From Candidatus Saccharimonadota bacterium (GTDB lineage: Bacteria > Patescibacteriota > Gracilibacteria > Absconditabacterales > Absconditicoccaceae): a stretch of 32,000 bases of DNA. The DNA lies in assembly GCA_965231145.1 (NCBI GenBank), contig OZ246420.1, positions 150,001-182,000 on the forward strand, given 5' to 3'. Positions 1,306 to 32,000 of the stretch are shown here, in pieces (the first letter of the stretch is position 1; every line of letters starts with the position of its first letter). Below the pieces are notes generated by a model. That model saw only the letters and a list, made by a program, of their open reading frames with translations, had not been told where the DNA came from and did no database searches. The translations under genes and the position numbers were made by a program.

Positions 1306-1385
1306 TTATCTATCGATTCTTCAATAGAAAATGGAAAATAAAAAATATTTTCTATCTTCTATTTTTTATTAGATATTGAGTAGCG

Positions 1386-3249: not shown

Positions 3250-3323
3250 AGCAATTAGATATTAGATTTTAGATTATAGCAATCTTACATTTGCCAACAT
3301 CTAACATCTATAATCGAATTGCT
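3250..3323 (+). repeat. long heptamer-periodic hairpin, AGAT family, copy 1 (after alaS)
   Basis: The 5' arm is AGCAATT AGATATT AGATTTT AGATTAT AGCA (3250..3281). The 3' arm is TGCCAAC ATCTAAC ATCTATA ATCGAAT TGCT (3292..3323). Arms are 32 nt with about 7 mismatches. It starts 11 nt after the alaS stop and has no clear U-tract. Confidence 0.6.
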
Positions 3324-6271: not shown

Positions 6272-6356
6272 GTTATTGTAGTAGTCATTATTTTCTATAT
6301 ATATGGTTGTTACCATTTGTTTTTCGTTTTTTGTTTTAGGTTTTTAGCTGACAAGT

Positions 6357-6803: not shown

Positions 6804-6818
6804 CTAATTAACTTATAG

Positions 6819-6890
6819 GCAGTTAGATATTGGATATTAGATATTGGCAAGGTGCTACAATCTAATATCTATAATCTAATTGCTTTTTTA
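6819..6890 (+). terminator. long heptamer-periodic hairpin, AGAT family, copy 2, with U-tract
   Basis: GCAGTT AGATATT GGATATT AGATATT GGCA (6819..6849), loop AGG, TGCTACA ATCTAAT ATCTATA ATCTAAT TGC (6853..6883), then TTTTTTA. The 31-bp stem has 4 mismatches and 3 G-U pairs that only pair in the + strand RNA. Confidence 0.75.
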
Positions 6891-8891: not shown

Positions 8892-8908
8892 ACATGCAAA
8901 CTTACAAG

Positions 8909-8973
8909 GCAGTTGGATTTTAGATGTTAGATTATAGCATCTTGCCAATATCTAAAATCTAACATCTAATTGC
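8909..8973. terminator. long heptamer-periodic hairpin, AGAT family, copy 3, between convergent holA and the DUF721-like gene
   Basis: GCAGTT GGATTTT AGATGTT AGATTAT AGCA (8909..8939), loop TCT, TGCCAAT ATCTAAA ATCTAAC ATCTAAT TGC (8943..8973), then TATTTTG. The stop codon of the - strand gene (8973..8975) abuts the 3' arm. Confidence 0.7.
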
Positions 8974-9251
8974 TATTTTGTAACAATGTTTTTCAACGTA
9001 TAAGCTAGCCCAAATTTCACTAGTTCCTTATTGATTTCTCCGAGCAGTTGAGGCTTTTCCCTGTAGAGTAGTATGCAGGCTTCCCTTGGTAGTCATTTCA
9101 CAAAGAGGATATTGTGTCTTATGTAACCATCGCATTCAGCGATGCTATAGCGTTGTTTGATAATACGAAAACAAACACTGATGACAGTGAGAGAACTTCC
9201 TACTTTCTTTGAAAGAGAGCTTTTCTTGAGTAATTGCTTAATGTCTACCAT
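8973..9251 (-). CDS. DUF721 (DciA-like) family protein
   Basis: Only visible with TGA=Gly (TGA at 9096..9098): MVDIKQLLKKSSLSKKVGSSLTVISVCFRIIKQRYSIAECDGYIRHNILFVK(G)LPREACILLYREKPQLLGEINKELVKFGLAYTLKNIVTK, 92 aa, TAG stop. The C-terminal half resembles the DUF721 pattern (L.V.v.s..wa.eL......l...in..l). From memory only. Confidence 0.5.
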
Positions 9252-9322
9252 AGTGAATTTAGCATTGAGAATACGATATGTAATGAGTATACAGATGAGG
9301 TATTTATTTTACCATACAAACT

Positions 9323-9790
9323 ATGAAGAAATTATTGTTGCTTATAGCAGTTTTGGGTTTTCAGGTTTGAGTTTTTAGTTCTGTTGTGGGAGCAGTTGAG
9401 AATACTTTTGATATCATTCCAAAGAGTGAAACAGATGTGTCGAGTGATGTGACTGAAATCGGGAAAGCCGGAGGAAAAGTCTGGGATAAGCTCAATGAAA
9501 AAGCGAAGCAGTATGAAGAAAATGATGATATCGGTGCGCAGTTTGCAAGTGGTGCATTCACGTGGAATACACTTCTGAATTACGTGATTTATCTGGTAAG
9601 ATTTCTTTCGCAGTTGGCATTGGTGATAGGAGCAACTATGATCATAGTCGCATGATACAAGTATGCGTCTGCATCTTTTACTGGGAAGCCATCAGGTTCG
9701 GAAGACGTAAGGAATGCCATTGTAGGTGTGCTTATTGTGATATTTTCATATGCACTTATCAGGATACTTACGGAAGCGTTCCTCACTTAA
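9323..9790 (+). CDS. small secreted two-TM protein resembling the CPR T4SS-pilin-like (TrbC/VirB2-like) family
   Basis: The ATG at 9323 is joined to ORF 9386..9655 and beyond via TGAs at 9368 and 9653. Signal peptide is MKKLLLLIAVLGFQV(G)VFSS. The C-terminal module is LLNYVIYLVRFLSQLALVIGATMIIVA(G)YKYASASFTGKPSGSEDVRNAIVGVLIVIFSYALIRILTEAF, that is TM, short polar loop, TM. Stop is TAA at 9788..9790. Confidence 0.7.
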
Positions 9791-9819
9791 TTACGAATTA
9801 ACAGTTGCGAATTACGAAT
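9789..9819 (+). repeat. tandem heptamer array AATTACG AATTAAC AGTTGCG AATTACG AAT
   Basis: AATTACGAAT occurs at 9789..9798 and 9810..9819 (21 nt = 3 x 7 apart), starting inside the stop codon of the preceding gene. The same 10-mer recurs at 21208..21217. Confidence 0.5.
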
Positions 9820-10604: not shown

Positions 10605-12176
10605 ATGATGAAGAAAAAAGCACCAAAAATATTGCAGGATATCCTTATAGAAAGGATAGGCTATGGCGGAGTAGGTATTGCGAGGCATGCTGATGGGCGT
10701 AAGATCCTCGTGTCATGAGGAGTGCTTCCTGGTATGAAAGCTGCTATTACTGTGACAAAGCAGAAGAAAGATTATACAGAAGGAAGACTCTATCATGTGC
10801 AATCATATGATCCCTCTTTTACGTTAGATCCAACTGCAGTTCGTTGTCCGCATTATGTGTTCAATCCGCAGGACGGATTGACTCATGACGGTATGGGCGA
10901 GCATAAGGTTGGCTGTGGAGGATGTAAGTGGCAAATTCTTACGTATGAGAAACAGCTTATCCTTAAGCAGCAAATTGTCAAAGATAGCTTTAGGCATTTG
11001 AGAGACGTAGTTGAAAAGGTTGGCATGAACTCTTTCGTTCCTGCTCCAGAAGTATTCAATTATAGAAACAAGATAGAGTATAGTTTTGGTAAATATATTA
11101 CCAATGAAGGAAATGACAATCAGCATTGGCAGCTTGGTTTTCATAAGCAGTGACAATTTTCTAAAGTCATTGATGTTGATCAATGCTATCTTGTTTCAGA
11201 GGAAGCAACAAAGCTGTATCGTACGCTCAAATCGATGCTGTTAGCATCGGGACTTATCGTCCATGATTCAAAGACACATGTAGGAATTCTTCGTCATCTT
11301 GTGGTGCGTGAAGGAAGAAACACGGGAAATTTTTTGGTCAATCTTAGTGTAGCAGAGGGTCAATTGGCTGAGCTTGGTATGAGCGAAACATGGGAGTCTT
11401 TTAAAAAGGTGCTTGCTGCGGATGAGTATCTGACAAAGACTATTACAAGCTTTGTCATTACGGTAAATGATGGGCTTGCTGATGTTGTACATGGGCAGGA
11501 TATTCATACCTATGAGCTCTGGGGAGAGGGACATATGTATGAGAAACTCATATTCAATTCACAAATCACAGAGCACAATTCACAATGAAATGAGGATGAA
11601 AATAATACTATAGAAGCGAGTTTCCGTGTGTCGCCATTTTCTTTTTTCCAAACGAATACTCTTGGTGCGCAAAGGCTATTCCAAACAGCAATGGATGCGG
11701 TAGGCAAGGTTGATGGGCATATCTTAGATCTTTACTGCTGAACAGGAACTATCGGTATAAGTTTCCTGAAGGCGGGGATGTGAGATAAAGTATTTGGTAT
11801 TGAAATAGTACCTGATGCTATTGTCGATGCTGTATGGAATGCAAAGATCAATGGTCTCGCAGAGCAGACATACTTTGTTGCATGAAAAGCAGAAGATCTT
11901 ATATCTCGTGATGAGTACATTGCGAGGCATCTTGAAAAGATGCAGCTCGTGATAGTAGATCCACCTCGTGATGGGCTCCATAAAACAGTCGTGGAGTTTC
12001 TTCTCAATCTGAAAAAAAATCATAATTTCACATTGCTCTATATTTCGTGTAATCCTGTAACTATGGCACGCGATATAGAACTTCTTGCTGGAGAGCATTA
12101 TGCGTTACAATCGCTGCAACCTGTTGATATGTTTCCGCATACACATCATGTAGAGATGGTGGGAGTTTTGCGCTAA
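10605..12176 (+). CDS. RumA/RlmD-type 23S rRNA (uracil-C5)-methyltransferase with TRAM domain and Fe-S cysteines
   Basis: Fragments 10722.., 11235.. and 11940.. share one frame from ATG 10605, with 6 in-frame TGAs. Features are the TRAM-like IERIGYGGVGIARH, the cysteine cluster CPHY...GCGGCKWQ, SPFSFFQTN, the SAM motif LDLYC(G)TGTIGISF (TGA at 11739), DPPRDGL and ISCNPVT. Stop is TAA at 12174..12176. Confidence 0.92.
11556..11596 (+). repeat. in-frame 41-nt heptamer-array element inside the rlmD-like CDS (copy A)
   Basis: AATTCAC AAATCAC AGAGCAC AATTCAC AATGAAATGAGGA encodes NSQITEHNSQ(G)NE. It is 35/41 identical to 17845..17885 in the unrelated DUF58 gene, in the same reading frame and with the same in-frame TGA. 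Confidence 0.7.
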
Positions 12177-13513: not shown

Positions 13514-13612
13514 CGTTATGTTTAACTAGAATATAAAGTTACATAGTAAATTATAAGAGTTTTCTGGGAAAAAGCAAAAAAATCTTAGAGTGGTTTTGTA
13601 TTGCATTCAGCC

Positions 13613-13661
13613 CGGTGTTTCGTACATTTTTCGGTATATGCACACGGTGTTTCACTATAAT
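13613..13661 (+). promoter_or_regulatory. direct repeats CGGTGTTTC x2 plus a -10-like TATAAT in a divergent intergenic region
   Basis: CGGTGTTTC occurs at 13613..13621 and 13645..13653 (32 nt apart). TATAAT at 13656..13661 lies 20 nt upstream of the ATG at 13681. Confidence 0.3.
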
Positions 13662-13680
13662 TTACCTCTTACATAACGCT

Positions 13681-14130
13681 ATGGTTTTCTATTTTATCCT
13701 CATATTTCTTTTGGGTGGATGAGTTGGGTATCTGATCTTTTTTGTCAGATATGAACATAGAGGATTGATTGATGAACTTAGAGATAACTTTCAGGAACAA
13801 AAGAAAATCCTTGATAACGTCCAGCATGATGCGCAGGAACATCTTCAGCAGAATATCATCCTCAAAGAGAAGGTGACAGAACTTATGACAAAAAATGATG
13901 ATCTTTCAAGGATTGTCTCAGAGCTCAGCAGGTATTACTACCACCTCAAGCTTGGAGCAGAAAAGGCTTCTGAGCTGGAGAAGATCCTTCATATCTTTGA
14001 TAAGGACATAGAAGATAAGATGAAATATACTCTCGGAGAGAGGATACTGGAAAGTATCAATGAAGAGAAAAAAGAAGTTTCACACGCAGAGAAGAAGCCT
14101 GTTATGATAGCGGGAACGAAGAAACGATAA
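13681..14130 (+). CDS. hypothetical N-terminally membrane-anchored coiled-coil protein
   Basis: The ATG at 13681 extends ORF 13765..14130 through TGA at 13720. MVFYFILIFLLGG(G)VGYLIFFV is the TM anchor, followed by a heptad-rich charged region (DELRDNFQEQKKILDNVQHDAQEHLQQNIILKEKVTELMTKNDDL). TAA stop. Confidence 0.6.
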
Positions 14131-14204
14131 TTCTCAATTTGAAATGTTGAATGTTAAATGAAAATAACAATATATTCAACGCTTAACATTTGTCATTTAA
14201 CATT
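14131..14204 (+). repeat. heptamer-periodic hairpin, TTCTCAATT family, copy 1
   Basis: It starts directly after the TAA stop: TTCTCAATTTGAAATG TTGAATG TTAAATG AAAATAA... AATGTTAAATGA (14150..14161) pairs perfectly with TCATTTAACATT (14193..14204). The first 19 nt including the stop match 17524..17542 at 17/19. Confidence 0.55.
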
Positions 14205-14214
14205 ATAAGCTAAT

Positions 14215-16200: not shown

Positions 16201-17526
16201 ATGAAAGAGCTATTGAAAAAGGTAACGATGTATGATCGCTGGTTTCCGTACTTTTCTGAAACGTATGTCTATAAGATGATCAAAACGCTTAGTGCAAAGT
16301 GGGCGGTTTTTGTACATGGGAATCCATCGCAGGGGATGTTTATTATTGGAGTAACAGGTACTGATGGAAAGACGACGACATGTAATCTCATCCATAAGAT
16401 CGTCAACGATAATCTCGGTAAAGCGATATTAATCTCGACAGCAAATATTAAGATAGGGGACGAGGAAAAGTTCAATCATTACAAAATGACATCGCTTGAA
16501 CCGGCTCATCTGCAGGCACTTCTTGCTGAGGCAAAACATCAAGGTTGTGCGTATGCAGTTCTTGAGGTTGCATCCCATGGTATTTCGCAAAACAGATTTG
16601 CAGGAGTCGAGTTCGATATGGCTGTCCTGACCAATATAACTCCGGAGCATCTCGATTATCATAAAACTTTTGAATCATATGTGAACACGAAAAAGAAGCT
16701 CTTTCAAGGCGTTCTGAAGAATAAGAAACCTGTAAAATACGCAGTCTTTCCTAAAGATGATGAGAGTGGTCGTCAGTGGGAGGAAGATATGAATTTCGAT
16801 AACTATCTTAGTTATTCACTCGTTGCTTCATCGTCACTGAAGGGTGAAAATGTCGAACTCAGTAGTGATAAAACAACCTTTTCTTTCTGATATCTTGGTA
16901 ACAATTACACCGTAGCGCTTCCGCTTCTTTGAAGATATAATGTGTACAATGCTCTTGCTGCATCAAGTGTAGGTCTGCTTCTTGGGCTTGAACCTAACGC
17001 GATTATCTCATCGCTTCAATCATTTCATGGAGTAAGCGGGCGTATGCAGAAGATCACCCATGGTGGAGTGAACTACTTTATTGATTTTGCTCATACACCG
17101 AACGCGCTCGACAGCGCCGTGACTTTTGTGAAAACAATCACGAGCTGAAGAACTATTCTCGTATTTGGTGCGCCAGGGAAGAGAGACGTCTTTAAGCGTC
17201 CGGAGATGTGACGTATTGCCGATAAGAAAGCAGATATTGTTATCGTTACCGATGATGATGCTGATAGTGAAAATCGTGTAACTATTATAGCAGATATAGT
17301 GGCTGGCATCAGCAGGAGTGAATGAGAAAACTTTTTCATTCTTCCAGAAAGAGAGTTTGCGCTTCGTATGGCGGTAGACCTTGCTCAGCCTTGAGATAAT
17401 GTGCTTATTGCAGGGAAGTGACATGAGCAGGTACAGTATACCAATTTTGGAAAGAGAAAATGGAATGATGTTAGTAAACTTACGGACATATTAACCGAAA
17501 AAGCAGAGAGCGAAGAGCAAAATTAA
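16201..17526 (+). CDS. murE: Mur ligase, MurE-type (UDP-MurNAc-tripeptide synthetase) with a very short N-terminal domain
   Basis: One frame with 7 in-frame TGAs. Features are the P-loop GVTGTDGKTTT, EVASHG, LTNITPEHLDYH, (G)RYNVYNALAA, GVSGRMQ, IDFAHTPNAL, VFGAPGKRDVFKRPEM(G)RIA, VTDDDADSE and IAGK(G)HE (TGA at 17419). Only about 50 aa precede the P-loop. Stop is TAA at 17524..17526. Confidence 0.9.
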
Positions 17527-17588
17527 TTCTCAATTCGAAACGCTCAATTCTCAATTGTATTGAGCACTGAGAATTTAGCATTTAGAAT
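17526..17588 (+). repeat. heptamer-periodic hairpin, TTCTCAATT family, copy 2 (after murE)
   Basis: ATTCTCA ATTCGAA ACGCTCA ATTCTCA AT (17526..17555), loop TGT, ATTGAGC ACTGAGA ATTTAGC ATTTAGAAT (17559..17588). Heptad periodicity already starts in the murE C-terminal codons (GCAGAGA GCGAAGA GCAAAAT). Confidence 0.55.
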
Positions 17589-17598
17589 ACTACAAGAA

Positions 17599-18267
17599 AT
17601 GTTGGACTATTTTCTGAAGATCAAAAAACTGCTATGAGTTCGTGGCAACGGGCAATTTTCTTCGTTGTTTCATGGTGCTGGAGTAGATATTGCCGAAAAT
17701 AGACAATACTCGACATGAGATGAAAAGCGCTCTATTAACCGGAAAATGTCAGCAAAGTACGACCAGATGTTTGTAAATTTGTTCCATGAGGAAAAAGCGA
17801 TAGATGTGTATGTGTGTTGCGATATTAACTATAATTGGAGATACAAAGCACAAATCACAAAGCACAGGTCACAATGAAATAAGGAGTTATTCGCTACTTT
17901 CTTTGCGGAGCTCACGTCGTATTTTCAGGAGAAAAAAGCTCATATTACATGATGGCTAGGTGAAGAGATCTTTTTGTCGCTCGAGAAACCTGTAAGTCAA
18001 AAGGGGTTTCTCGAGGCATGCGACAAAAAAATCGGACGTGCGCTGCCTCTCTATACTTCTAAGCTTTGATCTTTGCTTGCTCAGCAGCGCGCGGTAGCTA
18101 AGAAAAGACTTATTATCATCGTTTCAGACTTTCTCAGCTATGGTGAAGAAGAAAAGCGTCAGGTGAATGTGCTTCGTCAGAAGCATGAGGTTATACTATT
18201 ACGTATGCCGATGGATGAGAAGAAAGTGTCGGCTGATATGCTATCATTGGAAGTTTTTTGAGTATAA
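17599..18267 (+). CDS. DUF58 domain protein (vWA-like, Bat/MoxR-associated family)
   Basis: ATG at 17599 and 6 in-frame TGAs. The DUF58 core reads FHGAGVDIAENRQYST(G)DEKRSINRKMSAKYDQMFVNLFHEEKAIDVYVCCDI, then LIIIVSDFL. The final TGA at 18259 is read through to TAA at 18265..18267. Confidence 0.85.
17845..17885 (+). repeat. in-frame 41-nt heptamer-array element inside the DUF58 CDS (copy B)
   Basis: AAAGCAC AAATCAC AAAGCAC AGGTCAC AATGAAATAAGGA encodes KAQITKHRSQ(G)NK and is 35/41 identical to 11556..11596. Confidence 0.7.
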
Positions 18268-18293: not shown

Positions 18294-18380
18294 TGGTGCC
18301 TGAAGGGGGAATCGAACCCCCACTTCCTTGCAGAAACCAGATTTTGAGTCTAGCGTGTCTACCAATTCCACCATCCAGGC
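18294..18380 (-). tRNA. tRNA-Leu(CAA), class II with long variable arm, CCA encoded
   Basis: The reverse complement folds as a cloverleaf. Acceptor is GCCTGGA/TTCAGGC (one G-U). The D arm contains GTGGAATTGGTAGACAC. The anticodon stem is CTAGA/TCTGG with loop CT-CAA-AA. There is a long variable arm, the T arm is GGGGG-TTCGATT-CCCCC, the discriminator is A, and the 3' end is CCA. Confidence 0.93.
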
Positions 18381-18394
18381 GCTTATTAATTCAT

Positions 18395-18438
18395 AATTCA
18401 CATTTCACAAAGCATAATGCTCATATGATGAGTGAATT
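18395..18438 (-). repeat. heptamer-periodic hairpin in the predicted 5' leader of pre-tRNA-Leu
   Basis: The + strand reads AATTCAC ATTTCAC AAAGCAT AATGCTC ATATGAT GAGTGAATT. The outer stem is AATTCAC/GTGAATT. It lies between the predicted promoter (18442..18469) and the tRNA 5' end (18380). Confidence 0.5.
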
Positions 18439-19066: not shown

Positions 19067-19131
19067 GCAATTAGATTTCAGATGTTAGATGTTAGCAAGA
19101 TGCTGTAATCTAACATCTATTTGCCTTTTAT
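19067..19131 (+). terminator. long heptamer-periodic hairpin, AGAT family, copy 4 (after ssb)
   Basis: GCAATT AGATTTC AGATGTT AGATGTT AGCA (19067..19097), loop AGA, TGCTGTA ATCTAAC ATCTATTTGC (19101..19124), then CTTTTATT. Confidence 0.7.
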
Positions 19132-21715: not shown

Positions 21716-22819
21716 ATGACGAAGACGTTTGCAATAGAAACAAGTTGTGATGATACTTCTGTATGAATTGTCTGCTATGACAATGGTGTTTTTTCTGTAG
21801 AGAAGCTCCTTGCATATTCGCAAATTCAAGATCATCAAAAATTTGGTGGTGTGGTTCCAGAGGTAGCATATAGACTTCACTCTGAAAAGATGATACATTT
21901 ACTCCAAGAGATCGGGCTGGAGTCTATCTCAGGGATTGACTCTATAAGTGTGACAACTCATCCAGGGTTAGGCTGATCGCTTCTCGTGGGAAAGACTGCT
22001 GCGGAGATGCTCGGCGTTCATTACAGTAAAAAAGTCATAGGTGTAAACCACATTTACGGGCATATTTTTTCACTCTTATTGGAAAGAAATATCGATCAAC
22101 TTCCATTTCCATGGGTTGTGTTGACGGCCTCTGGGGGACACAACGAAATTTACTTCGTAAATTTAATTCAAAATTCAAAATGTAAAATGCAAAATGAAAG
22201 CATTCCTTATTATTTAGAGGACTTCGAAATAAAAAAGTTGGGCCAAACATTAGATGATGCGGCTGGTGAATGTTTTGATAAGGTTGCTCGTATGCTTGGA
22301 TGACCATATCCTGGCGGCGTCTGGATAGGACAAAAAGCGCTTCAGGGTAAGCCAAATGAAAGCGTCCAATTTAAGCGTATTTTTCTTGACCATGATAAAT
22401 ATGAGTTCTCATTTTCTGGCATGAAATCGCAGGTTCATTACTTGCTCAGTACTTTCGAGAAAGAGTGAGTCACATTGACTGAGCAGCTTATCTGTGACAT
22501 TGCTTATGAGTTTCAGGAAGCTGTGGTAGAGGTGTTAGCAAAGAAACTTGTGCAAGCAGCTCATGCCCATGGCGCAAAGACCATGGGGATAGCGGGAGGA
22601 GTTTCGGCAAATGATAGATTATTCCAATATGCTGCAGAGTATGCACAAAAAAGATTTTCTGCGAAAGAGATTATTACTACCAATGAAAATACTGTGGTGA
22701 TCTCTGAGGCATTTGACGGACAAACGCTACCACTCATGCGTCCCATGAAAAAGGTCTATTCGACTGATAATGCTGCGATGATAGGAGTGGTAGGGTTACT
22801 TACCGATATATCGAGATAA
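21716..22819 (+). CDS. tsaD: tRNA N6-adenosine threonylcarbamoyltransferase TsaD
   Basis: One frame with 4 in-frame TGAs. Motifs are FAIETSCDDTSV(G)IV, GGVVPEVAYRLH, VTTHPGLG(G)SLLVG, VNHIYGHIF, TASGGHNE, LGQTLDDAAGECFDKVARMLG(G)PYPGG, GIAGGVSAN and STDNAAMIG. Stop is TAA at 22817..22819. Confidence 0.95.
22165..22206 (+). repeat. in-frame tandem heptamer array inside tsaD
   Basis: AATTCAA AATTCAA AATGTAA AATGCAA AATGAAA GCATTCC encodes part of NLIQNSKCKMQNESIP. It lies between the GGH motif and LG.T.DDAAGE, where the spacer is about 23 aa here against about 8 aa in the E. coli sequence as I recall it. Confidence 0.6.
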
Positions 22820-29442: not shown

Positions 29443-29610
29443 AATGTAATTTATATCTTAAAACTCAGCTTTTTTTGTGTTTTCTGCTTTGAGCTACTAT
29501 AAGTATGCCCCATTGCAAATCAAATAGAGTTTCATATATTTCAGCTCAGAGAAAATAATAGATTCACAACAATAACTTATTCTCCTGTTTTATTTTTTTG
29601 TCTATGAAAT

Positions 29611-30933
29611 ATGCCATTGCTTCTGTGGCTTTTTCTTCTGGGAACGTCTCTCTACCATGTGTTGGTTACGGTAGTTGTTTATGGCATGTGACGGTCTCAT
29701 GCTGAAGTGCTTGTTATCATCAGAGATGGTTTGTGGCTCCTGTTTTTTCTTGTATCATGCGTCATACATAGAAAGCTTATAGTAGCGTATCTACAGCGTA
29801 CATGGTACTTGCGGCTGGTGTTTATCGCGCTTTGAACACTTGGGGTCGTCGTTTCTTGCTTTCATCAAAAACTTCCAGGTGATATCATTATAGGTGCGAA
29901 ATATGGTATGCAGTTTTTTGTTATTTTTCTTATGGCTATCTTCTTCTGATATGTCTTTTCGCAGCAGAAAGAAAAATATTATCCTTGGTTGAAAAAGATT
30001 TTTTTGATGATAGTAGTCGTGTTGATCGTGTGATTTGTCTGGCAAGCAGCAAAGATGCTTATGCCAGAGTTCTTTTATAGTATAGGTTATGCACCGCTAG
30101 GGGATTGGGTGTTTGGGCAAAATCCACCATTGTATTATCTTACCTGACCTGGATGATATGCAAGACTCAGTTGAATTTTCTCAGGACCAAATAACTATGG
30201 TTATCTTATGGTTGCACTCTTCGGTTTTTGGTGGCGGTATCTTCGCACTCGTGTACAGCATAAAACAACTAAAACGCTCTTACGATTGCTTTTTGGACTT
30301 TCTGTAGTTGGCACTCTTTCCAGAGGAGCTATCATATGAATATTTCTTCAGATTATAGCACTTTCATTTGTGTTATTGCATGCAAAGCGCAAGTATATCT
30401 GGTCGCTTATAGTTGTTGCAATTCTTGCGGTGGGAGTATTGAGTATTGTGAAGCGATGATCGACGTTAGAGCATGTGCGTACAAAGTTTGGAAGTCTTTC
30501 GTATGTGCGGTCAAATCCATGGGGCTATGGTCTTGGCTCGTCGGGTCCGAGCATCCATACATGACATGGCAATATACTTCCTGAAAATTTCTTTGTGCAG
30601 ATCCTGATCGACATAGGTATCCCAGGTTTGCTCTTATGGTTATTCTTTTGGTACCTTGTCTTACATAGCATGCGATCTAATAGAGCAAAGGTGAAAGATG
30701 AAAGAGCAAAGTTACATAAAGAAGAATTGTTGACTAGCAATCAGCAGACAAACCTATGAGATAACACTTTGTTAATATGTCTTTCATTTAGTTTTCTATG
30801 ATTGCTTCTCGAGGGGATGTTCTTACATGTCTTTGAAGACAGTATGGTGAATTATTGGTTCTTTATACTATGGGGAATAGTGTACGGATACGTACAAAGA
30901 AGTGAAAACTGAAAGAGTAGAGAGCAGAATTAA
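29611..30933 (+). CDS. O-antigen ligase / Wzy_C domain polytopic membrane protein
   Basis: One frame is open from 29503 to TAA at 30931..30933 with about 13 in-frame TGAs. ATG at 29611 was chosen as the start. It has many TM helices. Motifs are ARLS(G)IFSGPNNYGYLM, VGTLSRGAII(G), NPWGYGLGSSG and H(T)(G)HGNILPENFFVQILIDIGIPGLLLW, matching the Wzy_C pattern (R..g.f..pN; SRg; H.HN.yl..l.e.Gi.G). Confidence 0.85.
30681..30721 (+). repeat. in-frame heptamer array inside the Wzy_C gene, related to the 14831 hairpin arm
   Basis: TAGAGCA AAGGTGA AAGATGA AAGAGCA AAGTTAC encodes NRAKVKDERAKLHK in a loop between TM helices. 30692..30714 matches 14831..14853 at 20/23. Confidence 0.45.
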
Positions 30934-31041: not shown

Positions 31042-32000
31042 TTATTGTAATAAGACGAAGTTAGTAACAACGTATGCTGTTCCAATGATGATGATACCTA
31101 TGATAATATAGAGGAAATTTCTTTTGATCTTGTCGATTTGTTTTTCGTCGGTCGGGTTTCTGAGAAGGCTGATAGCCTCTATGATAATGAGTACGAGTAC
31201 GATAAATCCTACAAGTCCCATAACCCGGTTGAGCACAACATAGAGCCATGCAAACGATTTGTCTGCAAGCACGCCGCTGCCGATATCTGCAAGTGATGTG
31301 GCAAATGGATTTACCACTTCAGCTTCCTTTCCGTAAATAGTTTCTGCAAGAGATTTTGAAAAGATGATAGTCAATATACCGATGGTGTTCCATATGATGA
31401 TCGTTTTAGCATGGTCCTTTATCTTATCATCTGGACTCATCACAAATCTATACATATGAAGAAGGAGTATGAGGAAGAGTACTCCCATTACTAAGAACAT
31501 GATCATCTTGAGAAACGGAAATATGATCAGACTGTAGAGTTTCCATGCTGCTATATTTCCTTGAAAGAAGCCGTTGAAGTCGAGGACTCCTCATGCTCCG
31601 ATCAGTCTGCTTGCGATAAACGAAGCAGAAAGCATGATGATGATTCCTACGACGCCCCGAAGAAGATACGCAAATCATTTCTTTTGTGCGTCGTCTTTGT
31701 CGGCAGACATAATTTCGTAAAATCCTATGATTGCCATAAGTATCCCAACGATGATGAAAGCTGGGATGATAATCTTTTGTACTACCGCAATGATCGTATC
31801 TCTTGCGCCTTCAGCACCACCTCGTGCACCGGCGAAACCCGCGCCTTCAAGATGATTTTGGATAGGTAATGTGGTTTCTCTGATGGCTATATCAAAGCGA
31901 GAAAATAATAACGATCCTACTGTGGTTCCCATAAATGCGCCTATAACTCCTGCTCATCCACTACCTCCAAGAGCTCCAACAACACCCATGGGCGTGGTGG
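31042..32000 (-). CDS. polytopic membrane protein made of three tandem T4SS-pilin-like (TM-loop-TM) modules; N-terminus beyond the window
   Basis: ORFs 31042..31506 and 31675..31932 share one frame. The gap contains only TGAs (31591, 31675), and the frame stays open to base 32000 (a further TGA near 31963). The modules are IIPAFIIVGILMAIIGFYEIMSADKDDAQKK(G)FAYLLRGVVGIIIMLSASF, MIMFLVMGVLFLILLLHMYRFVMSPDDKIKDHAKTIIIWNTIGILTIIFS and MGLVGFIVLVLIIIEAISLLRNPTDEKQIDKIKRNFLYIIIGIIIIGTAY. Stop is TAA at 31042..31044. Confidence 0.7.

Follow-up and report, generated by a model that had tools for sequence, protein, structure and literature searches.

A dispersed heptamer-lattice repeat family with in-frame copies in unrelated genes of a code-25 Absconditabacteria genome

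How does nearly the same run of 41 nucleotides (nt) come to be read as protein in two unrelated genes? The question is raised by a 32,000-nt stretch of contig OZ246420.1 (the whole of which we call the window), where one such segment (copy 1) lies inside a gene for an RlmD/RumA-like 23S rRNA (uracil-C5) methyltransferase and its counterpart (copy 2) inside a gene for a DUF58-like protein, each being built of four heptamer units with a CACA core and a shared end. An initial annotation, made from the sequence of the window alone, took the segment for a 41-nt element inserted into both genes. We find instead that both copies belong to a family of 35-nt modules, each of five 7-nt units, with at least seven copies in 47 kb, including one in TsaD and others that form the arms of intergenic hairpins. 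The explanation that we favor, with moderate confidence, is a dispersed repeat on a heptamer lattice that spread by DNA-level copying and persisted where segments of proteins are permissive.

The genome sequence inspected amounts to 46.7 kb, consisting of the window and a 14.7-kb extension reached through the proteins at its ends, and this coverage is the main limit of the analysis. The source genome belongs to Absconditabacteria/SR1, with top homologues annotated as SR1, Absconditabacterales, or Gracilibacteria, and it reads TGA as Gly (genetic code 25), TGA codons being found at conserved Gly residues of the LYCGTGTIG motif of the methyltransferase, the GKGHEQ motif of MurE, and the GGH motif of a TsaD orthologue. 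In-frame TGA at conserved Gly together with relatives of this annotation is the mark of a code-25 host (Gracilibacteria/SR1). Three independent Logan assemblies (ERR4405439, ERR4405440, and ERR4405441), one contig of which reaches 76 kb, agree at 100% of positions over the region, so neither copy is an assembly artefact.

Results

Two related segments in the same frame

The resemblance between the two segments is as the initial annotation gave it. The copies are identical at 35 of 41 positions, lie in frame 0 of their code-25 open reading frames (ORFs), encode the peptides NSQITEHNSQGNE (copy 1) and KAQITKHRSQGNK (copy 2), and each contains an in-frame TGA codon, at 11586-11588 and 17875-17877, respectively. 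When a degenerate 37-mer is searched with up to three mismatches, these two sites are the only matches in the window and none of 100 dinucleotide shuffles contains one, and the similarity thus survives a composition-preserving null.

Much of this resemblance concerns the type of unit. The four CACA units of copy 1 are 82% identical to those of copy 2 in register and 71-86% identical after a shift of one array by 7 or 14 nt, and the identity of the arrays is therefore evidence of a common type of repeat unit and of that alone. The signal that is specific to position is the 12-nt tail ATGAAATRAGGA, which matches at 11 of 12 positions between the copies, a match of which ~0.38 would be expected by chance anywhere in 64 kb of shuffled sequence and ~6e-6 at exactly this offset. 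This position-specific stretch is made up of unit 5 and the six following bases, AATGAAAT[G/A]AGGA. Unit 5 is a family feature, present also in the TsaD member and the member at 14129, and the TRAGGA that follows it is restricted to the pair (5/6 identical, p ~0.006 by composition).

The distribution of the differences bears out the proposal of a DNA-level process. All six are nonsynonymous and five of them affect a heptamer's variable triplet (p ~0.014, under a uniform spread, for at least five of six falling in the 13 variable positions), the CACA cores, which occupy every codon phase, are identical at 16 of 16 positions, and the encoded peptides differ at 5 of 13 residues. Cores that are identical in all codon phases, combined with differences that change amino acids, indicate that it is the DNA lattice, and not the peptide, that is conserved.

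The shared reading frame itself was discarded as an argument for relating the copies. Neither TAA nor TAG occurs in any frame of the CAC-type 35-nt core; three of its six frames are open under code 11 and all six under code 25, and over the seven members of the family the mean number of open frames rises from 2.9 under the standard code to 5.4 under code 25. Because every frame is open under code 25, a frame common to copies 1 and 2 is weak evidence. Reading UGA as Gly in this way widens the set of insertions that can be survived, and it removes the main barrier to A/T-rich modules in ORFs.

Three local roles for the coding copies were considered and rejected. A hairpin or terminator at copies 1 and 2 is not predicted, since the folding z scores are near zero (+0.21 for copy 1, +0.14 for copy 2, and -1.13 for the TsaD copy), and no RNA secondary structure is seen in any of the three. 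A sigma-70-like match at 11579-11606 (TTCACA, 16 nt, AATAAT; 10/12) arises from copy 1 and its tail and has no counterpart at copy 2, which led us to dismiss an internal promoter. Likewise, an internal start was rejected because the ATG inside the tail opens just 2-6 codons.

A colinear family of 35-nt modules

A repeat search returned five segments in register with copy 1, among which are those in the DUF58-like gene (84%), in TsaD at 22161 (67%), and at 17521 and 18384 (62% each). From these and further matches we recognize at least seven colinear modules (Table 1), each of 35 nt or 5 x 7 nt, that start with (T)AATTCNN and often end with AATGAAA, the latter being the final unit in four of them. 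A leave-one-out weight matrix gives the seven 35-mers scores of 11-35 bits, six of them at 20 bits or more, and the full matrix finds eight hits of at least 22 bits in the 46.7 kb, whereas neither the 49.3 kb of sister loci nor shuffled sequence contains one. When the five units of a member are permuted in all 120 ways, the order actually present ranks in the top 2-20% for six of the seven members.

The family is not confined to one kind of site. The TsaD copy is read in a frame other than that of copies 1 and 2, encodes (L)IQNSKCKMQNE, adds four residues relative to the orthologue in the sister locus L073, and lies in a variable loop between the GGH motif and LGQTLDDAAGE. With it, a single repeat family is found in frame in three unrelated genes (RlmD-like, DUF58, and TsaD) and is missing from their orthologues, which is the pattern that defines the in-frame elements of Rickettsia. 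Among the intergenic members, that at 14129 begins within the TAA stop codon of ORF 13537-14130, and that at 17525 combines with an inverted copy at 17555-17589 into a hairpin immediately upstream of the DUF58 start (z -2.59). The CAC-type member at 18388, which is 540 nt downstream of copy 2, has tRNA-Leu(CAA) (18294-18380, minus strand) on one side and the SSB gene on the other. Inverted doublets forming gene-end hairpins, as in repetitive extragenic palindromic (REP) sequences and their doublets (REPINs), are seen at 14129, at 17525, and in a separate TTAGATN family, and not at the coding copies. In general the intergenic arrays fold well, with z down to -7.3, and the coding arrays have z near zero.

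The host sites

The methyltransferase has 120 homologues with PF05958, named RlmD or class I S-adenosylmethionine-dependent RNA methyltransferase, from SR1/Absconditabacterales, and it matches the solved structures PDB 5xj1 (S. pneumoniae RlmCD) and 1uwv. Copy 1 lies between YEKLIF and FRVSPFSFFQTN, at a site where the loop length runs from 0 to ~45 residues among these SR1/Gracilibacteria orthologues. The peptide NSQITEHNSQG occurs in the window protein alone among the 120, in line with the view that the segment is not ancestral. The short turn expected in homologues is also found, 5xj1 having only 'GN' at this position and a gap for the rest. In an AlphaFold 2 model of the orthologue P0002 (predicted local distance difference test score, pLDDT, of 89) the site is a beta-hairpin turn, with strands at 294-301 and 309-316, a loop at 302-308, and a local dip in pLDDT, and the model thus places copy 1 in what is predicted to be a permissive loop. 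The loop is 22 residues long here and 13, 18, and 19 in the three nearest relatives (~70% identity), all of which differ in sequence, so the window protein is longer by three to nine residues. Insertion was therefore the right term in part: both genes carry additional lineage-specific sequence, but the methyltransferase case is a replacement of the N-terminal part of an already hypervariable beta-hairpin loop and not as a clean insertion.

The same RlmD loop carries recurrent peptides in other lineages, namely GEAEES (P0003 and P0114), TKGNPA..KGGN (P0048 and P0067), and VIPAEAGIQ (P0006), with P0009 also among the orthologues concerned. This suggests that the hairpin tip has received other repeat DNA in those lineages.

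In DUF58, all seven orthologues (44-61% identity, with the window's own protein excluded) lack exactly 10 residues at the site of copy 2, and a codon alignment of four orthologous loci shows N-Y-N-W/R-K joined directly to G-x-N-x-K/E-x-F where the window has W-R-[YKAQITKHRSQ]-G-N-K-E-L-F. A structure prediction for this protein reached a pLDDT of 41.6 from its seven-sequence alignment and is unusable.

Heptamer arrays in the window, its relatives, and public sequence

Heptamer arrays extend well beyond the family. At a stringent threshold the window contains 10 degenerate period-7 segments (~0.31 per kb), with none in 20 shuffles, and period 7 alone is enriched, every other period from 4 to 12 giving zero or one array. 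Two sister loci, L073 (ENA k141_458747, ERZ27257314) and L075 (GCA_030429145.1), share the gene order of the window from EF-P to signal peptidase (the RumA-like protein is ~71% identical to P0002 of L075 and the DUF58 protein ~60% identical to that of L073) and contain zero period-7 arrays. The closest relative, L076, has a few arrays of AATTCAA type. In the 47 kb the same type of unit is dispersed at many loci, with at least seven arrays of AATTCNN type and four TTAGATN hairpins. The arms of the latter are themselves heptamer repeats (z -3.1 to -7.3), in which the six conserved bases pair and the seventh, which varies, bulges out. Among the four TTAGATN hairpins compensatory changes were not found, and TTAGAT doublets number 10 here and 0 in the sister loci. 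These hairpins look like REP- or terminator-type elements on the 7-nt lattice.

Public sequence was scanned for further copies. A scan of a genome collection with CACANNNCACANNNCACAATGAAA gave 69 loci where ~17 were naively expected, most of which are true (CACAATT/CACAATG/CACAGTT)n arrays of the generic (CACAATK)n kind from Clostridia, Tissierellales, Synergistota, Bacteroidota, Planctomycetota, Acidobacteriota, and Chloroflexota, some of them hairpins with heptamer arms; neither the source genome nor any SR1 copy was among the matches. In the 503 kb of matched loci (L001-L069), arrays of period 7 number 189, compared with 5 and 14 for periods 6 and 8, and the units AATTCTC, AATGCAA, and AATTACG are common to the window and to matched loci of distant phyla. 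Arrays of (AATTCAC/AATGCAC/AATGCAA/AATTCTC/AATTACG)n recur in very distant phyla, often as hairpins, and in one Gudongella locus (L041) a 17-mer, TCACAATGAAATGAGGA, is identical to one in copy 1 and lies directly upstream of an ATG. These arrays look like a class of heptamer-lattice repeats that spans phyla.

Scanning metagenomes with CACANNTCACAATGAAATRAGGA yielded no hit, and a metagenome search for DUF58 relatives recovered only the contig already known. A peptide search with the three plus-strand frames of both copies yielded one candidate and none that was significant, a weak negative because the collection searched is without the genome's own RumA. Rfam matched the tRNA and nothing else, and a literature search on Absconditabacteria returned nothing relevant.

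Remaining features and surroundings

The other arrays and the coordinates of the host genes are collected in Table 1. The C-terminal extension of MurE ends in the very TAA that opens the module at 17525. Genes resembling those of a type IV secretion system (T4SS) or of conjugation flank the region at either end (31042-32000 and the flanking loci L077 and L079), comprising T4SS pilin-like, TraG P-loop, and DUF87/TrwB-like genes. Left of the window, heptamer arrays are almost absent over 9 kb, a stretch that may therefore be a recently acquired island. Public assemblies of the organism carry standard-code gene calls in which almost all genes are broken up (L070), and another was called with TGA as Trp (L071, P0121); with the wrong code, the proteins of the organism are split, or carry W in place of G, in public protein collections.

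Table 1. Positions of the repeat modules, their host genes, and other heptamer arrays, with unit sequences.
Feature	Position	Strand	Sequence and context
RlmD/RumA-like 23S rRNA (uracil-C5) methyltransferase gene	10605/10608-12176	+	code 25; 6 in-frame TGA=Gly; hosts copy 1
Copy 1	11556-11596	+	AATTCACAAATCACAGAGCACAATTCACAATGAAATGAGGA; within RlmD/RumA-like gene
Copy 1 core	11556-11590	+	AATTCAC AAATCAC AGAGCAC AATTCAC AATGAAA; then shared tail TGAGGA
DUF58-like gene	17599-18267	+	222 aa, code 25; PF01882 on P0121-P0127; gene call in L071; hosts copy 2
Copy 2	17845-17885	+	AAAGCACAAATCACAAAGCACAGGTCACAATGAAATAAGGA; within DUF58-like gene
Copy 2 core	17845-17879	+	AAAGCAC AAATCAC AAAGCAC AGGTCAC AATGAAA; then tail TAAGGA
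TsaD member	22165-22199	+	AATTCAA AATTCAA AATGTAA AATGCAA AATGAAA; TsaD ORF ~21716-22819
Intergenic member	14129-14163	+	AATTCTC AATTTGA AATGTTG AATGTTA AATGAAA; left arm of hairpin 14125-14212, z -1.83
Intergenic member	17525-17559	+	AATTCTC AATTCGA AACGCTC AATTCTC AATTGTA; begins within MurE TAA stop
Intergenic CAC-type member	18388-18422	+	AATTCAT AATTCAC ATTTCAC AAAGCAT AATGCTC
Member just past window	32806	+	AATTCTG x3, GATTCTG, GATTGTG; appears antisense to minus-strand gene
TTAGATN hairpins	3250-3322, 6817-6886, 8908-8974, 19067-19124		~70 nt, just past gene ends, T-run after each
Signal-peptide array	9349-9380		AGTTTTG-type, in ORF 9284-9790; in-frame TGA; +2 aa vs three orthologues
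MurE C-terminal 8-aa extension (TEKAESEEQN)	17497-17526		AAAGCAG AGAGCGA AGAGCAA; not in L075, L081
AAAGRTG array	30686-30712		inside ORF 29503-30933
AATTACG array	9789-9819		past stop of ORF 9284
GTTTTTC array	6316-6345		directly upstream of 6357 start
AATAGAA/TTCTATT hairpin	1322-1371		upstream of AlaS start at 1386

Discussion

Proposed copying within a dispersed family

Copies 1 and 2 are, in our favored explanation, the two most similar members (a 'CAC' subtype) of a lineage-specific dispersed repeat family on a 7-nt lattice, whose intergenic copies start exactly at stop codons or sit in 5' leaders and whose inverted pairs form terminator-like hairpins. The coding copies would have arisen by copying of DNA between members of the family or from a common donor, likeliest by non-reciprocal, microhomology-primed templated insertion or by short-patch gene conversion. 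The shared tail and the colinearity of the units are explained by a common origin by copying and not by independent slippage. The tail of the DUF58 copy coincides with ancestral Gly and Asn residues while the methyltransferase loop is unconstrained, and this favors a short-patch, microhomology-anchored copy that would have passed from the DUF58 gene to the methyltransferase gene or from a third member to both, a direction that we infer. A coding copy would persist only if the protein tolerates the added residues, the net change in length is a multiple of three, and no TAA or TAG is in frame; the tip of the RlmD-like beta-hairpin, the DUF58 loop after beta1, and the variable loop of TsaD would be such tolerant sites. 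The hydrophilic peptide encoded is probably without function, and what is conserved is the nucleotide lattice.

Several observations weigh against this explanation. Because the arrays are about equally identical in and out of register, it is mainly the 12-nt tail that speaks for a common descent of the pair. Just 3' of the array in DUF58, the codons TGA (Gly) and AAT (Asn) align with Gly and Asn residues that are conserved in all the array-free orthologues, one of which (L081) reads AAG TGA GAA AAT; since both residues are ancestral, the TGA may not have been brought by the array, or the junction may have formed at microhomology with the loss of one codon. An ancestral junction would fit copying from the DUF58 gene to the methyltransferase gene or a microhomology junction, and it weakens the idea of a self-contained insert. 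Thus of the original point about UGA, it stands that the frame used is readable only if UGA is a sense codon, but the TGA in DUF58 lies at an ancestral Gly and may have been there before the insert. Furthermore, beyond copies 1 and 2 themselves the 46.7 kb contain no segment of 41-mer type and a single other CAC-type array, the 14.7-kb extension adding none of the CAC type, and public scans returned no further 41-mer copy, the genome being hardly represented in the collections. Neither terminal inverted repeats nor a target-site duplication, which a MITE (miniature inverted-repeat transposable element) would have, was found in the flanks of any of the seven family copies, and no associated enzyme was identified in the sequence inspected. 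Finally, heptamer arrays of unrelated units occur in further coding segments (the signal peptide of ORF 9284, the C-terminal tail of MurE, and the array at 30686), which is exactly what local slippage predicts.

Alternative origins

A true mobile mini-element, one of the processes that the initial annotation had suggested, is unlikely. In this case a transposase, or an enzyme similar to the REP-associated tyrosine transposases (RAYTs), would act in trans to move a sequence of ~41 nt resembling a Rickettsia palindromic element (RPE) or a MITE, with each insertion independent and bringing its own TGA. The family is indeed multi-copy and colinear with defined ends (TAATTC ... AATGAAA), its inverted pairs make REPIN-like hairpins, and in-frame insertion has a precedent in Rickettsia (PMC10969869). 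The coding copies, however, are without inverted repeats, target-site duplications, or structure (z ~0), near-identical young copies were not seen, the best pair being 84-85% identical, and the ancestral Gly and Asn at the DUF58 junction do not suit an element that carries its own TGA. No transposase was seen in the 47 kb, itself a weak negative, and no copy bearing the tail appeared in the public genome and metagenome scans.

We give the same low credence to independent growth in place, whereby a lineage-specific 7-nt slippage bias would have expanded local seeds and the resemblance of the copies would be convergence. Arrays of many differing units are found throughout the genome, coding segments included, and array identity is independent of register, both of which slippage would produce. 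Tandem Repeats Finder reports period 7 at both sites and additionally period 14 at copy 2, and this 14-nt duplication has a counterpart in a 21-nt higher-order duplication within copy 1 (NSQITEH/NSQGNED); polymerase slippage has also been proposed for the heptanucleotide simple sequence repeats (SSRs) that are the most abundant long SSR class in many prokaryotes (Mrazek et al. 2007, in the form in which PMC4679880 relays it). Against convergence stand the match of 11 of 12 nt beyond the lattice at the same offset (~6e-6 by chance), the colinear order of units over seven members, and the terminal AATGAAA shared by four. The units within an array agree at 5-7 of 7 positions, with the CAC(A) core alone fixed and three positions per unit variable, and so are not the near-identical units of a simple-sequence tract. 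An abrupt break separates units 4 and 5 (2/7 identity), so the local unit 5 is not the source from which units 1-4 were copied.

Somewhat more doubtful is a selected cis-element, for which one CACA per 7 nt would serve as an mRNA or DNA platform for a protein (one resembling S1, Csp, or Hfq, for instance, or a regulator that reads heptamers), and would modulate translation, pausing, or transcript stability in both genes. The conserved cores and tail set beside differing variable triplets (p ~0.014) would be expected of such an element, as would the orientation of the family, all seven members lying on the plus strand and at least six in the sense of the local genes. Moreover, (NNNCACA)n arrays are common in leaders of other phyla; of 70 CACA arrays there, 17 stop exactly at the ATG that opens an ORF of at least 60 codons. 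The TAACTGA repeats known from Beggiatoaceae, Cyanobacteria, and Bacteroidetes are placed similarly, just upstream of starts and occasionally in ORFs, and have been suggested to act in translation (PMC4679880). Yet the host genes have no common function or operon and their orthologues manage without the segment, the two sites share no downstream structure, start codon, or promoter (the sigma-70-like match occurs at copy 1 alone), and no candidate binding protein was identified.

A bolder proposal, which we regard as improbable, is that this genome and a sub-clade including L076 carry an active process dedicated to writing or copying heptamer modules of five units. Working through a template-directed polymerase, a reverse transcriptase, or a site-specific enzyme with TAATTC/TAA as its target, it would deposit modules at stop codons, where inverted pairs would become the terminators of the organism, and would occasionally write into an ORF. 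With UGA reassigned to Gly, nearly all frames of these A/T-rich modules could be translated. The lattice would then be the footprint of an enzyme's register and not of generic slippage, and the AATKCAN arrays of Firmicutes, Bacteroidota, Planctomycetota, and other phyla would reflect a shared mechanism that spread horizontally.

Ancestral sequence, or chance similarity of two A-rich coding segments, is highly improbable even in an AT-rich genome (~40% GC) where both segments encode hydrophilic loops, given that no shuffle of 100 reproduces the match and the segment is missing from all orthologues examined.

Relation to known repeat systems

In-frame insertion of repeats into unrelated genes is best known from RPEs (PMC10969869). 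As with RPEs, a short repeat family occurs here both between genes and in frame within unrelated housekeeping or metabolic genes of a reduced genome, with the peptide placed where the fold tolerates it (PMC10969869). RPEs differ in being ~100-150 bp long and palindromic with a conserved peptide per family, whereas the present modules are degenerate heptamer arrays of ~35-41 nt with unstructured coding copies that are read in differing frames, and their peptide is not conserved.

Head-to-tail 7-nt units occur in the window above chance, as in a heptanucleotide tandem repeat, and we take the short tandemly repeated repetitive (STRR) sequences of cyanobacteria to be a comparable system. For the SSRs of Mrazek and the TAACTGA repeats (PMC4679880), the likeness extends to a 7-nt unit in many dispersed short arrays, mostly intergenic and often at stop or start codons, to occasional arrays at permissive ends of ORFs, and to a patchy, lineage-specific distribution. 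The present units differ in being degenerate (4-5 fixed and 2-3 variable positions), in coming in a fixed number of about five with a colinear order, in forming long hairpins as inverted pairs, and in that several arrays are internal to essential genes. With REP sequences and REPINs (PMC3116915 and PMC3733652), the family shares short (20-40 nt) extragenic repeats at gene ends that occur as inverted hairpin doublets and as singlets, but REPs are themselves imperfect palindromes, essentially extragenic, and without heptamer arrays. Phase-variable contingency repeats are likewise short tandem repeats in or beside genes; those tracts are perfect, hypermutable, and frame-shifting and are found in surface antigens, whereas these arrays are imperfect, in frame, located in housekeeping enzymes, and identical in three assemblies, across which no unit-number polymorphism was found (a weak test, as the assemblies represent one population). 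The kinds of repeat are thus known ones, RPE-like in-frame repeats and heptanucleotide families, and what is new is a variant in a code-25 lineage.

Implications

In practical terms, the arrays and the in-frame TGA codons make gene callers that use the standard code fragment genes, and the arrays mark fast-evolving loops and are potential strain markers. Peptides containing NSQITEHNSQGNEDENNTIEASFR and YKAQITK/HRSQGNK would prove translation through UGA. If our explanation is true, this would be an RPE-like case outside Rickettsia, with repeat DNA inside essential genes (RlmD-like, TsaD, and DUF58) of a host of the candidate-phyla-radiation type that has a reassigned stop codon, and one family of sequences would supply both terminator-like hairpins at gene ends and new sequence for protein loops. 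The change of code would itself relax selection against the insertion of repeats, since reading UGA as Gly doubles the open frames of the CAC type from three to six.

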